Shown: positions 28,603 to 31,132 of the stretch, in pieces | How the letters are laid out: the number at the start of each line of letters is the position of its first letter | How positions within the stretch are numbered: position 1 is the stretch's first letter | Source: a virus | DNA: 39,910 bases | Virus genome (UHGV): UHGV-1354558 | Strand: one strand, 5' to 3' | The notes under the pieces: generated by a model | Databases searched by the model: none | Told to the model about the DNA's origin: nothing | The model's input: the letters and a program-made list of their open reading frames with translations, nothing else | Made by a program: the position numbers and the translations under genes

Positions 28603-28628
28603 ATAAAAAAGCCCTCACACTGGAGGGC
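28603..28628 (-). terminator. intrinsic terminator upstream of cIII (tL1-like)
   Basis: Minus strand reads GCCCTC-cagtgt-GAGGGC followed by TTTTTTAT. Confidence 0.55.
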
Positions 28629-28764
28629 AAAGAAGATTTCCAATAATCAGAACAAGTCGGCTCCTGTTTAGTTACGAGCGACATTGCTCCGTGTATTCAC
28701 TCGTTGGAATGAATACACAGTGCAGTGTTTATCCTGTTGTTTATGCCAAAAATAAAGGCCACCA

Positions 28765-29016
28765 TCAGGCAGCCTTGTTGTAAATGTTGCAGGTATCAAG
28801 TAAGTAATTAGATGGAGCGCCATAAATTATGAATTCATCGTTTGTCGGGTCCATCTCCATCTCTTGGCCTATTGCCATTCTTGCGTCAGTGTCATCAGCG
28901 GCGAAGCATAAAACAGCCCACGCACCCATTGTTTTAAAAAGAACTGCAATTGGCTGTGGTTTTACTGAATTTGCGTTAGCGCGAAAATCATAAATCGCAC
29001 TTTCATGAAATTCCAT
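28765..29016 (-). CDS. hypothetical protein immediately downstream of N
   Basis: 83-aa acidic ORF, 9 nt downstream of N. Confidence 0.5.
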   Translation of the reverse strand: MEFHESAIYDFRANANSVKPQPIAVLFKTMGAWAVLCFAADDTDARMAIGQEMEMDPTNDEFIIYGAPSNYLLDTCNIYNKAA

Positions 29017-29024
29017 ATCTCACC

Positions 29025-29324
29025 TCAAATAAGTGGTTTGCTGCCTAATTTCATTTTCTGGCGACCAACACAAGTCACACCCATTTCACTGCGTGGCTTG
29101 CGGTAGTAAATACGGTTCTGTTTACGCTCGACTTCTTCTGCCTTCTTGCAGCGAAGGCTTCCGAGTGATGCTGCTTTGTCTGCTCTGACGCAACCAGAGA
29201 GCTTTAGCGCAATTTTTTGTGCCAGTCGCTGCTCTTGCATTGCCTGTTCACGTTGAGCCTGTCTGCGTGCTCTGCGGCGATTTCTGGCGTTATCGTCAGC
29301 CAGATATGTAATGACTACTGTCAT
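29025..29324 (-). CDS. N: N-type antitermination protein
   Basis: N-terminal arginine-rich motif (DNARNRRRARRQAQ) and a C-terminus (YYRKPRSEMGVTCVGRQKMKLGSKPLI) resembling lambda N (WYSKPGERGITCSGRQKIKGKSIPLI). GGAGG upstream. Confidence 0.75.
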   Translation of the reverse strand: MTVVITYLADDNARNRRRARRQAQREQAMQEQRLAQKIALKLSGCVRADKAASLGSLRCKKAEEVERKQNRIYYRKPRSEMGVTCVGRQKMKLGSKPLI

Positions 29325-29767
29325 GTTGACCTCCGATGATTGACTTTGGTGATTGGATGGCCGGTGCTGAATTCCGGCTTACTGGTTAGAGCGCCCGCAC
29401 TACCAGTGACGCTGTCTTGAGGCGCAGATTGGTTACTGCTTGCCATGAGCGCTGTTTATACATTGGTCGAGCATCAGCCTGCTCATTCATCCAATCCCAA
29501 AGCCAACTACTCTTTGACTCACACTCTCGCAGTGAGCGCGCTCATGCCCTTGAGTCTCTGCCGCTTCATCGCCGCTGATAACCGGTGCGCGTCTGGCATT
29601 CGCGCTGCTTTACCGGAGCTACTTTTAATATATTGACCCTAACCCGATGCTAAGCAGGCTCGCTCAATGGCGACTCAGGGCAGCATCATTACTGCTGCAT
29701 TGCCTTTCGGCTGCGGTCTAACCGCGTTAGTGCACCATTACGGCACCTCCTGTTTGGTTAAACTCAG

Positions 29768-29809
29768 TTCCCGCATTTCGGCGGGACAATCCCATCAATG
29801 TTAAAGAGC
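29768..29809 (-). promoter_or_regulatory. nutL (boxA GCTCTTTAACA plus boxB hairpin)
   Basis: Minus strand has boxA GGCTCTTTAACA followed by a hairpin TCCCGC-cgaaat-GCGGGA, which is the same stem-loop as in nutR. Confidence 0.6.
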
Positions 29810-29855
29810 CTGCCAATCTGTTCCGTTTGGCTTCCAGCGTCCTGCTGATGGCTAA

Positions 29856-29897
29856 AGAATACTGTAGGTATTTTATTGTGTAAATACCCAAGGTATT
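29856..29897 (-). promoter_or_regulatory. PL promoter with two operator sites (OL)
   Basis: Operators AATACTGTAGGTATT (29858-29872) and AATACCCAAGGTATT (29883-29897) fit AATACY-N3-RGTATT. Minus-strand -35 TTTACA and -10 TATTCT with a 17-nt spacer overlap them. Confidence 0.55.
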
Positions 29898-30029
29898 TAT
29901 TTTTGGTGAAATAATGATAAGCAAATGAATACAAAGGATATTTATTTTTTTCGGTGTCTGCTTGTTCAGTGCTTTTTATGCGGGATATGTGAAGTGGATC
30001 CCGATAGCTATTGCTGCCGGGATTATGAG

Positions 30030-30398
30030 TTAGTCAGCGAAGGTTAAGACGAGAATTACCTTAATGATGTCTGCTACAACAGACACGGTCATAGATAAAC
30101 CAAAGACGATCCAAGCCATAGAGATGTCTTCACTACCATCGTATAGAGTTCCGTAATCACTGGTGTAAGGCGTAAATGTCGCGCCTTGATACAATAGGTA
30201 TAAGCTTGATCCATAGAGGATAAATGCAGATATCCCTTGTATTGCCATGATCACCAGAATCATGAAACGAGCTGATCTATGCGCCCAAGCCTGGCTTATT
30301 TTTTCTGATAGAGATTTCGCAATAAAAGCATGCGCTAAGCCGTAAATTGTTGAGATTGCCAACATCCCCAAAAAGCTTGCTATAGCGGTTCCAACCAT
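30030..30398 (-). CDS. small polytopic membrane protein co-transcribed with cI (rex-like position)
   Basis: ATG at 30398 with AAGGGG 6 nt upstream, 18 nt after the cI stop. 122 aa with about four hydrophobic helices; a lower-GC tract follows. Confidence 0.6.
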   Translation of the reverse strand: MVGTAIASFLGMLAISTIYGLAHAFIAKSLSEKISQAWAHRSARFMILVIMAIQGISAFILYGSSLYLLYQGATFTPYTSDYGTLYDGSEDISMAWIVFGLSMTVSVVADIIKVILVLTFAD

Positions 30399-30415
30399 AA
30401 TCGCCCCTTGCGTGA

Positions 30416-31132
30416 TCAAACCAGCCTTAGTTTTGTCTCAATTGCAACGCCTATAATCTTGCAGTTTCCATTGATTGGCACGAGAGGCCATGCAGGATTA
30501 AGTCCCTTGAGGTATTTATTTCCGCCGTCGATTATCAGCTTCTTGAATGTTGCTTCGTTAGAGTCAGAAAGTTTTGCTATGACCAAGCTGCCGTTGATCG
30601 CCTCCCTTCCGGTATCGAAAAGAACGAATGTTCCCTCTGGAATGCTTAACCCAACCGGTGCCGTCATTGAATCACCTTCCACTTTAAGCCAGAACGCATT
30701 ACCTTGAATATGCGCGTCAGACTCAAGCCAAACATCTATGTCTTTAATGGTGTATGGTTCGCATGCTTCACACCACGAGCCAGCCTGGATACTGCTTAAC
30801 ACCGGATACCTCTTTCCTGCTCTGTATTCCCCTGCATACCTTACGTTGGCATCGCTCTTAAGGCTTTCTGCCTGTTCTGCAACCTTGGCAGCAATTGACT
30901 GGCTAAAATCAGCAATTGAGACTTGCAACAGTCGTGCAAAACCAGATGCAACCTCAACGTTTAGCGCGTTTCTGCCATTAAGATAATGCCCTACCGCTCC
31001 TTGGGTGATACCCAGTTCATCAGCGATTGAGTATTGGGTTATCCCCAATTCTTTCTTTTTTGACTCATACAAAGCCTTAAGCCGCTTAGCGTCTTCGAGC
31101 TGTTCTGTCGTCAGTGATTTTTTATTTTCCAT
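30416..31132 (-). CDS. cI: CI-type repressor (HTH plus S24 autopeptidase)
   Basis: 238 aa: MENKKSLTTEQLEDAKRLKALYESKKKELGITQ... closely parallels lambda CI, with the C-terminal LexA-like domain (WLKVEGDSMTAP...FKKL). Apparently leaderless start. Confidence 0.9.
   Translation of the reverse strand: MENKKSLTTEQLEDAKRLKALYESKKKELGITQYSIADELGITQGAVGHYLNGRNALNVEVASGFARLLQVSIADFSQSIAAKVAEQAESLKSDANVRYAGEYRAGKRYPVLSSIQAGSWCEACEPYTIKDIDVWLESDAHIQGNAFWLKVEGDSMTAPVGLSIPEGTFVLFDTGREAINGSLVIAKLSDSNEATFKKLIIDGGNKYLKGLNPAWPLVPINGNCKIIGVAIETKLRLV

Follow-up and report, generated by a model that had tools for sequence, protein, structure and literature searches.

In phage lambda, a long stem between nutL and the ribosome-binding site (RBS) of gene N is an RNase III site that modulates N translation. 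The lambda bar minigenes and the CreT RNA toxins consist of a strong Shine-Dalgarno (SD) sequence and a two- or three-codon open reading frame (ORF) within the non-coding transcript of a mobile element, and in CreT a stabilising structure lies downstream of the minigene. The put RNA of HK022, a phage that lacks N, is about 70 nucleotides (nt) long, forms two stem-loops and is present in two copies per phage, one after pL and one after pR (PMC9378689). Finally, pLS20 conAn2, Tn916 canT and EAR are RNA-only or RNA-containing processive antiterminators of conjugation or polysaccharide operons, the canT fragments measuring 232-291 bp (PMC8191782, PMC11658703). Here we analyse the leader between nutL and N in the virus genome UHGV-1354558 (39,910 nt in its entirety, referred to below as the window). 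This leader holds a 250-nt cassette from a structured-RNA family that is new and widespread and carries an unusual mini-ORF of its own; a lambda-like RNase III-type stem lies beside it.

The cassette resembles each of these RNAs in part. Like HK022 putL and putR, it is a sense-strand RNA of enterobacterial lambdoid phages located early in the operon, just downstream of pL or in an early or late leader, and is protein-independent in principle; unlike put, it contains a mini-ORF, coexists with N or Q and is also found on plasmids. An identification as put was rejected, the family module being 215-250 nt long, single-copy, built of 11 helices and placed beside N and nutL. With conAn2, canT and EAR it shares a length of a couple of hundred nt, a structured and orientation-specific RNA, a place at the head of long operons and terminators that often follow, whereas those elements are Gram-positive, unrelated in sequence and devoid of a mini-ORF, and conAn requires a protein partner. 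The bar minigenes and CreT have the same strong SD and minute ORF but need rare codons (AUA, AGA), whereas the cassette uses varying codons (K, V, H, Q) and continues into a conserved fold of 210 nt. The orphan RNAs GOLLD, ROOL and STnc100 are likewise conserved complex prophage folds, frequently close to tRNA genes and transcribed along with phage genes (PMC5737381); they are larger (GOLLD and ROOL) or already have an Rfam family, and none of them matches the cassette or has a 5′ mini-ORF.

An earlier note on this DNA, made from its sequence alone, had proposed an Rfam covariance-model scan and a comparative alignment with relatives. The scan (Rfam 15, 4227 models, gathering thresholds) matched no family anywhere in the window and none on the module in 17 related loci, and E-value scans up to 10 with three members returned weak unrelated matches only, none of them common to the members. 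ARAGORN detected no tRNA or transfer-messenger RNA in the window, and no description of the module was found in the literature by topic or by its invariant 16-mer. The RfaH ops/JUMPStart element (GGCGGTAGnnTG) was rejected as a candidate: helix P1 of the cassette reads GCGG-NNAGA-CCGC, with one extra base, and the TAG is unconserved (CAG and AAG variants occur). The Rfam JUMPstart model has no match in the window. The comparative alignment revealed both conservation and covariation, as described below.

A 250-nt insertion between nutL and N

The window is a nearly complete HK620/P22-like lambdoid phage. From the end of boxB (29769) to the N start codon (ATG, 29324-29322) we counted 444 untranslated nt, in agreement with the gap of about 440 nt reported before. 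The segment is not the single untranslated leader for which it had been taken: it comprises two unrelated elements and starts with a conserved SD and a three-codon mini-ORF. Its modest rise in GC content is real, at 0.505-0.545 over 29300-29799 compared with 0.365-0.375 immediately upstream (29800-30099) and about 0.42-0.47 downstream, below 29200; the N gene itself (29100-29399) has 0.515-0.525.

In an alignment of four leaders, those of the window and an Stx2c phage have 250 nt (29517-29766) cleanly inserted immediately behind boxB, a stretch that is missing from HK620 and vB_EcoP-611R6. The 611R6 leader is otherwise identical to that of the window, the cassette being their sole difference in the leader region, and the remainder of the HK620 leader is shorter. 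Among 101 unique N leaders of the window's type collected from viral contigs, the insertion is present in 10 (absent from about 90%), always at the same place and always adding 250-251 nt, and it is found together with three different variants of the downstream leader and its stem. Because its size is fixed, its site is one and its downstream variants are three, we regard it as a presence/absence cassette and not as a stretched leader. The window phage and 611R6 thus form a natural filled/empty pair, as do mEp237 and HK225.

The family lacks the marks of a transposon. Flanking direct repeats were no longer than controls in 141 of 142 copies and no terminal inverted repeats were found at the cassette ends (29517/29766), and a miniature inverted-repeat transposable element (MITE) or insertion-sequence derivative was rejected on both grounds. 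The sole exception among the 142 copies is Providencia phage PSTCR7lys, where a perfect 17-bp repeat, GGTGAGTTGATTAATAG, flanks the module (1441-1457 and 1697-1713 of locus L009) and duplicates the 5′ untranslated/SD region of the downstream gene.

A covarying fold on the transcribed strand

The cassette scores far beyond chance against a covariance model of the family (260.7 bits, E 3.7e-74). Helices were derived from alignment column statistics and then tested separately, with the 3′ partner slid along the alignment as the control. In a discovery set of 108 sequences, we tested 46 pairs in 11 helices: 95.4% of cells are standard pairs, as against 31-36% in the slid controls, 472 cells are changed on both sides (46-92 when slid) and 31 of the 46 pairs show compensatory change. 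An independent set of 67 sequences gave the same picture for 43 pairs, with 97.2% of cells paired (30-35% when slid), 315 cells changed on both sides (15-41 when slid) and compensatory change at 26 pairs. Covariation in two independent sequence sets thus upholds the earlier suggestion of a structured RNA. G.U cells greatly outnumber A.C cells (347 versus 82 in the discovery set, 192 versus 31 in the independent set), and the fold therefore belongs to the transcribed sense strand.

The family alignment shows modular variation, with optional hairpins inserted at two places and many compensatory changes, together with GNRA-type loops and near-invariant junction nucleotides. The most constant segment, CUCAAGGGCAUGAGCG, was invariant in blastn-derived homologues of 69-99% identity, the lone variant seen being CUCAAAGGCAU in mEp237. 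Two palindromes had been singled out in this segment before. GCGCG-N9-CGCGC (29605-29587) proved to be helix P7, the best-covarying of all, with compensatory changes at 5/5 pairs across the family. The other, GAGCGCGCTC (29543-29534), is not a conserved hairpin: it is subtype-specific, is split over two helices and reads GAGCGYGGCC in most family members. Folded thermodynamically as a single sequence, the module has no exceptional stability (z -0.9 to -1.1), so the support for this fold is entirely comparative; RNAalifold by itself recovered part of the structure only.

The absence of a credible ORF was also confirmed, with a small correction to lengths: the minus-strand ORFs have 41, 34 and 26 codons, where 25-34 had been given. 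None of the three is conserved, and every frame contains stops across 99 homologues. The median is 2-4 stops per frame, and core lengths modulo 3 are spread as 35/34/30 over the same homologues. A protein-coding gene on either strand was rejected, since no frame is free of stops and the indels do not respect multiples of three. The idea of a degenerate remnant is not supported either: in hundreds of elements, selection on the module is strong, both purifying and compensatory.

A mini-ORF of one to three codons at the 5′ edge

The cassette opens with a strong SD, an ATG, zero to two further codons and a stop, after which the fold of about 210 nt begins; nearly every copy in the family has an SD and mini-ORF of this kind. 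At least 122 of 161 unique copies, the window's among them, pass strict criteria for this layout, which is that of bar/CreT-type minigenes (SD, AUG, one or two sense codons, stop); most of the copies that fail have a weaker SD or a TTG start. In the window the mini-ORF encodes M-V-H and its stop ends 1 nt before P1, a distance of 1-9 nt across the family. The encoded peptides vary (M, MK, MV, MKH, MKQ, MHQ, MVH), and 21 copies are a bare start-stop. Since the peptides differ and these 21 copies have no sense codon after the start, the sequences argue that the conserved feature is initiation and immediate termination at one spot, not a peptide product. A rare-codon minigene that sequesters tRNA was rejected for the same reason, its codons being variable (AAG, GUG, CAC/CAU, CAA/CAG) or reduced to start-stop.

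Distribution of the family

A blastn search with the 250 nt retrieved 16 phage records, from phages of Escherichia, Klebsiella, Hafnia, Edwardsiella and Providencia and also phiKO2. The module is present in 118 of 5426 complete E. coli genomes, annotated as RNA in none of these, and on 23 plasmids of Pantoea, Rahnella, Erwinia, Pectobacterium, Yersinia and Klebsiella; hosts that carry it in prophages include E. coli, Klebsiella, Citrobacter and Xenorhabdus. A pattern taken from its most conserved stretch matches at least 120 viral contigs. The same approach matched 99 species-representative genomes, about 58 of them with true members, from Enterobacterales; one true member outside this order, on a contig in a Vagococcus assembly, is probably contamination. 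The 41 matches in other phyla equal the number expected by chance, and all 41 failed in nhmmer, as did all 33 that were searched with the covariance model. That model, built from 108 copies, found 68 copies in loci outside its training set and none among the 33 chance-pattern loci searched. Usually there is one copy per element, and the copy is single in the window and in all phage records. On the sequence evidence, the cassette is almost certainly a real structured RNA and the family a conserved, non-coding and strand-specific one, confined to mobile elements of Enterobacterales.

Some individual records depart from this pattern. Klebsiella phage vB_VIPKPNMC05 has a truncated or degenerate copy (1459-1640 of locus L011; 57.7 bits compared with about 200-260 for full copies) between the lysis genes and the HNH/terminase region. 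Coding sequences for hypothetical proteins are placed over the module in database records (L007 1416-1752, L002 1774-1914, and E. coli H50, H59 and H63), on the opposite strand in the RothC record, and the 611R6 record has a 'repetitive proline-rich cell wall protein 2' within the leader stem. These coding-sequence calls are probably spurious.

Position of the module in phages and plasmids

Wherever a gene begins close behind the module in the annotated phage and plasmid records that were examined, both have the same orientation; in the one other E. coli record examined, the nearest downstream annotation lies on the opposite strand. Phages carry it at three positions: immediately behind nutL in the pL leader (at least two unrelated N-leader types); directly after the Q gene and a tR′-like terminator; and between Rz/Rz1 and the small terminase gene. 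On conjugative plasmids, it lies in all five cases examined in the leader of a type IV pilus operon (MPF_I) or of a virB-type secretion operon (MPF_T). The Yersinia plasmid has a promoter-like site immediately upstream of the module, and the cassette would therefore be the 5′ end of the type IV secretion mRNA there. In the window, a promoter scan found only pL, with no internal or own promoter for the cassette.

The surroundings of the module are otherwise diverse. Of 111 copies, 31 have an intrinsic terminator directly before them, and a conserved A/U-rich spacer with an intrinsic terminator at a fixed distance lies downstream in 21 of 151. The next gene begins from about 20 to more than 400 nt away. 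The downstream genes have no common function (N-like proteins, holins, TerB-like proteins, methyltransferases, RdgC and others), and a dedicated partner gene was rejected on account of this heterogeneity and because nothing but the cassette distinguishes the window from 611R6 in this region. In HK225 (L354, about 2026-2100), the site after Q is empty: the terminator and GGAGG (UUUCUGGAGG) are kept and the module is absent. Its filled counterpart is mEp237 (L353, 1921-2203). As HK225 retains the SD, the cassette at this site uses a resident SD, like a gene module.

Other non-coding elements were seen near some copies. In one late region after Q (L031, 7958-8219), the small RNA STnc100 (RF02076, 90 bits) lies about 800 nt downstream of the module, with a tRNA gene coming directly after it, so several non-coding RNAs cluster there. 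Pectobacterium plasmid pLPa1526 has a C4-type antisense RNA (RF01695, 69 bits; L012, 533-618) upstream of traA, then a NusG paralogue (PF02357) and a hypothetical gene, ahead of the module and the pil operon. In Edwardsiella phage EPP-1, about 650 nt upstream of the module (L008, about 815-1480) hold no convincing ORF or Rfam match and may be another non-coding element of the pL-side region.

A lambda-like stem between the cassette and N

Three RNA elements are stacked in the pL leader of the window: nutL, the inserted cassette, and a 20-bp long-range stem before the N RBS. The 190 nt between the cassette and N have a minimum free energy (MFE) of -75.2 kcal/mol compared with -53.7 kcal/mol for shuffled sequences (z -5.1), owing to this stem (29507-29488/29359-29339), which has one bulged A and ends 4 nt before the SD of N. 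Across 30 leader variants, the outer 10 bp are invariant and the inner 9 bp are fully changed yet paired (GGUGACGUG/CGCGUCACC, ACUGGC/GCCAGU, GCAAGCG/CGCUUGC and others). In all, the 12 stem variants show compensatory change at 9/9 variable pairs.

As in lambda, double-stranded RNA of about 20 bp or more is thus found between nutL and the N RBS. Like the lambda N-leader stem, that of the window has about 20 bp with one bulge, lies between nutL and the SD, covaries, and leaves its apical part free to vary; it has no sequence similarity to the lambda stem. By this analogy, which concerns 29339-29507 and not the cassette, it is probably an RNase III-type element and the counterpart of the lambda stem. 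The earlier idea of a processing site is plausible for these promoter-distal 190 nt only.

The apical insert of the stem has features of its own. It contains a second boxA-like sequence, GCGCUCUAACC (29384-29394), followed by a hairpin GCCGG-N9-CCGGC (about 29378-29360). Two of its segments are complementary to the cassette, 29444-29452 to 29538-29546 (9 nt, perfect) and 29384-29394 to 29713-29723 (10/11 nt), involving the invariant CAUGAGCGC and the P1 region. This complementarity is probably due to chance, because the same stem variant lacks the cassette in 8 of 11 leaders. A decayed second copy of the cassette within the leader stem was rejected, as similarities are short and at chance level and nhmmer gives no match at E up to 10.

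Possible functions of the cassette

The function that we rate highest, and still tentatively, is suggested by genomic context: the cassette may be a cis-acting leader device that secures expression of long operons. We favour it because the module is in sense orientation, has no promoter of its own, stands at the head of long operons and precedes two unrelated kinds of plasmid transfer operon. A ribosome would load on the mini-ORF once it is transcribed and terminate at once, insulating the fold from upstream and covering the sole unstructured stretch, at the 5′ edge. The compact RNA would then act in cis on its own transcript or elongation complex, by RNA-only anti-termination or anti-polarity, and at the 5′ end of a transcript would shield the mRNA as well. 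Expression would thereby reach the distal genes of a long operon: here N and the pL operon, elsewhere late genes or pilus and type IV secretion operons. At the downstream stem, RNase III would cut the N mRNA away from the RNA of nutL and the cassette, and would also adjust the translation of N. In orientation and leader position the family would suit the functional class of processive antitermination RNAs, with read-through as a prediction, and the terminator that follows 21 of 151 copies at fixed spacing fits an element able to read through. HK022 put, conAn2, canT and EAR are precedents for antiterminator RNAs in such a niche.

Several observations weigh against a cis-acting device, whose mechanism is here pure inference. 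The cassette sits beside a complete N/nutL system in the window, or behind Q, where an extra antiterminator looks redundant, and HK620 and 611R6 do well without it. Its single copy and variable position fit a trans-acting product better; HK022 carries one put site in each of two operons. What the conserved terminator, or the RNase III-type stem, after the module marks out could instead be a discrete and stable RNA. The genes that come next differ widely and are often moron-like (TerB-like, methyltransferase, Bor-like). We also know of no antiterminator RNA that needs a mini-ORF.

A possible, if doubtful, alternative is that the cassette is cargo of the same sort as phage tRNAs, GOLLD or ROOL: a gene for a stable trans-acting non-coding RNA that is co-transcribed with the operon around it and released by a terminator or by RNase III at the following stem. 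The target of this RNA in lytic growth or transfer would be conserved and belong to the host or to defence. The mini-ORF would shield the 5′ end or link the RNA to ribosomes. Such cargo would account for one copy per element at variable positions, for classical moron sites with moron-like neighbours, for coexistence with N or Q and for the resident SD kept at the empty HK225 site, which makes the cassette look like a gene module. It is also consistent with the spacer and fixed-distance terminator, which occur in more than one context, with the RNase III-type stem that directly follows in pL leaders of two N types, with the tRNA genes or STnc100 adjoining the module in late regions, and with loops and junctions that are near-invariant across hosts. 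However, no own promoter was found in phage contexts, about 85% of copies lack the terminator, and no target could be proposed. In addition, all five conjugative plasmids place the module in the leader of a pilus or type IV secretion operon and not in accessory or leading regions.

We consider it improbable that the cassette has catalytic activity, self-cleaving or other, or serves as a dedicated processing and stability element, cutting long transcripts of mobile genetic elements and leaving the downstream mRNA with a protected 5′ end. The complex fold with its pseudoknot, GNRA-type loops and near-invariant junctions would suit a ribozyme, as would the intergenic, sense-strand location in phage operons that many small ribozymes share, and a ribosome bound at the SD on the 5′ edge would make the RNA more stable. 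Against this, the RNA, at 210 nt, exceeds in size the self-cleaving classes known, the ribozyme and intron models of Rfam yield no match at E up to 10, and no conserved context for a candidate cleavage site could be identified.

Little probability likewise attaches to a sensor, either riboswitch-like or a translation-sensing attenuator, that gates costly operons by ligand or ribosome availability, with the mini-ORF sensing and P1 pairing alternatively. Enterobacterial leaders in which an upstream ORF controls Rho termination do exist, for example that of mgtA. The leader position and the conserved junctions, typical of ligand pockets, point the same way; moreover, a ribosome on the mini-ORF stop codon must melt P1, and invariant segments offer alternative pairings for the P1 3′ strand. 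The expression platform is nevertheless inconsistent, with the variable distance to the next gene and with 85% of copies lacking a terminator, and a riboswitch was rejected for this reason. An ORF of 1-3 codons, at times start-stop only, is also unable to sense amino acids, and the regulated genes share no function.

Finally, a degenerate remnant, a selfish functionless (MITE-like) insertion or a small-protein gene is very improbable: presence/absence polymorphism in phages that work without the cassette, and hypothetical proteins annotated over the module in some records, speak for it, but covariation and frame statistics largely refute it, with loops that are invariant and compensatory changes that are strong in at least 58 species, no terminal inverted repeats, no target-site duplication in 141 of 142 copies, and frames broken by stops and indels.

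Beyond these readings, the family might found a new class of ribosome-primed structured RNA, in which a start-stop or 2-3 codon ORF is integral to a pseudoknotted RNA of about 210 nt. Such an RNA would act without any element-encoded protein, by reprogramming the transcription complex (a second, unrelated type of put-like antiterminator shared by phages and conjugative plasmids) or as a new ribozyme or ribosome-binding effector. We put this forward as a speculative proposal that is rather unlikely to hold.

Early and late regulation in lambdoid phages is among the best-studied systems in biology, and a large covarying RNA is still unannotated in the N leader, behind Q and before terminase genes. 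The same module precedes pilus and type IV secretion operons on plasmids of plant-associated enterobacteria, and annotators currently leave its region empty or fill it with spurious ORFs. Acting in cis, it would give long operons a portable means of securing their expression that needs no protein, a second route besides N, Q, put and RfaH and one of use in synthetic biology; acting in trans, it would count as a new effector RNA of phages and plasmids. Under either reading, an ORF of 1-3 codons fused to such a complex fold makes an unusual RNA. Nature provides isogenic pairs that differ by the cassette, which makes comparisons easy to set up.

Features of the pL region

Gene and site assignments in the pL region were made from sequence reading, a consensus scan and the annotated HK620 record (Table 1). 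The pL-like site would drive transcription of all elements downstream of it. The nutL of the window, boxA and boxB included, is identical in alignment to the annotated HK620 nutL, and a CGCUCUUUAA-like boxA followed by a boxB hairpin is found, as expected of nutL, between pL and an arginine-rich N protein. The arginine-rich motif of this protein is DNARNRRRARRQAQ (NRRRARRQAQ), and N and related downstream genes match PHROG 271 ('anti-termination protein N-like').

Table 1. Coordinates of the RNA elements and neighbouring genes in the window, with the two strands of each helix separated by a slash
Feature	Position	Strand	Basis
cI repressor	30416-31132	-	sequence and HK620 annotation
hkaS-like membrane protein	30030-30419	-	sequence and HK620 annotation
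pL promoter-like site, TTTACA-17-TATTCT	29856..29884	-	consensus scan; homologous to annotated HK620 pL/OL
nutL: boxA GGCUCUUUAA (29810-29801) and boxB hairpin UCCCGCCGAAAUGCGGGA (29786-29769)	29769..29810	-	sequence and alignment
Inserted cassette, 250 nt, structured-RNA family member	29517..29766	-	alignment gap versus HK620/611R6; nhmmer E 1e-72; covariance model 260.7 bits
Mini-ORF SD, AGGAGG, 7 nt before ATG	29746..29751	-	sequence
Mini-ORF, ATG GTG CAC TAA (M-V-H-stop), stop ending 1 nt before P1	29727..29738	-	sequence
Structured core, 11 helices including one pseudoknot, about 210 nt, G-rich	29518..29725	-	comparative covariation
Helix P1	29725-22/29716-13	-	
Helix P2	29711-09/29704-02	-	
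Helix P3	29698-93/29685-80	-	
Helix H4	29679-77/29639-37	-	
Helix P4	29673-70/29663-60	-	
Helix P5	29659-55/29646-42	-	
Pseudoknot	29651-49/29619-17	-	
Helix P6	29616-13/29585-82	-	
Helix P7	29605-01/29591-87	-	
Helix H10	29554-51/29544-41	-	
Terminal hairpin	29536-32/29522-18	-	
Near-invariant segment CUCAAGGGCAUGAGCG, hairpin H10 and its 3′ flank	29539..29554	-	blastn homologues
Long stem, 5′ strand GUUGGCUUUGGGAUUGGAUG	29488..29507	-	MFE fold and pairing list
Variable apical insert within the long stem, about 28-130 nt in relatives	29360..29487	-	leader variants
Long stem, 3′ strand CAUCCAAUC-A-CCAAAGUCAAU, bulged A at 29350	29339..29359	-	MFE fold and pairing list
N RBS (GGAGG 29334-29330) and N gene, 99 aa	29025..29334; ORF 29025-29324, ATG 29324-29322	-	ORF list, PHROG, HK620 annotation

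Further along the pL operon, downstream of a small ORF (28765-29016), the window contains a hairpin with a T-run that resembles an intrinsic terminator (GCCCTCCAGTGTGAGGGCTTTTTTAT, 28607-28632). Phage mEp213 has recombined at this terminator-like sequence, and thereby carries the module together with a second N gene.

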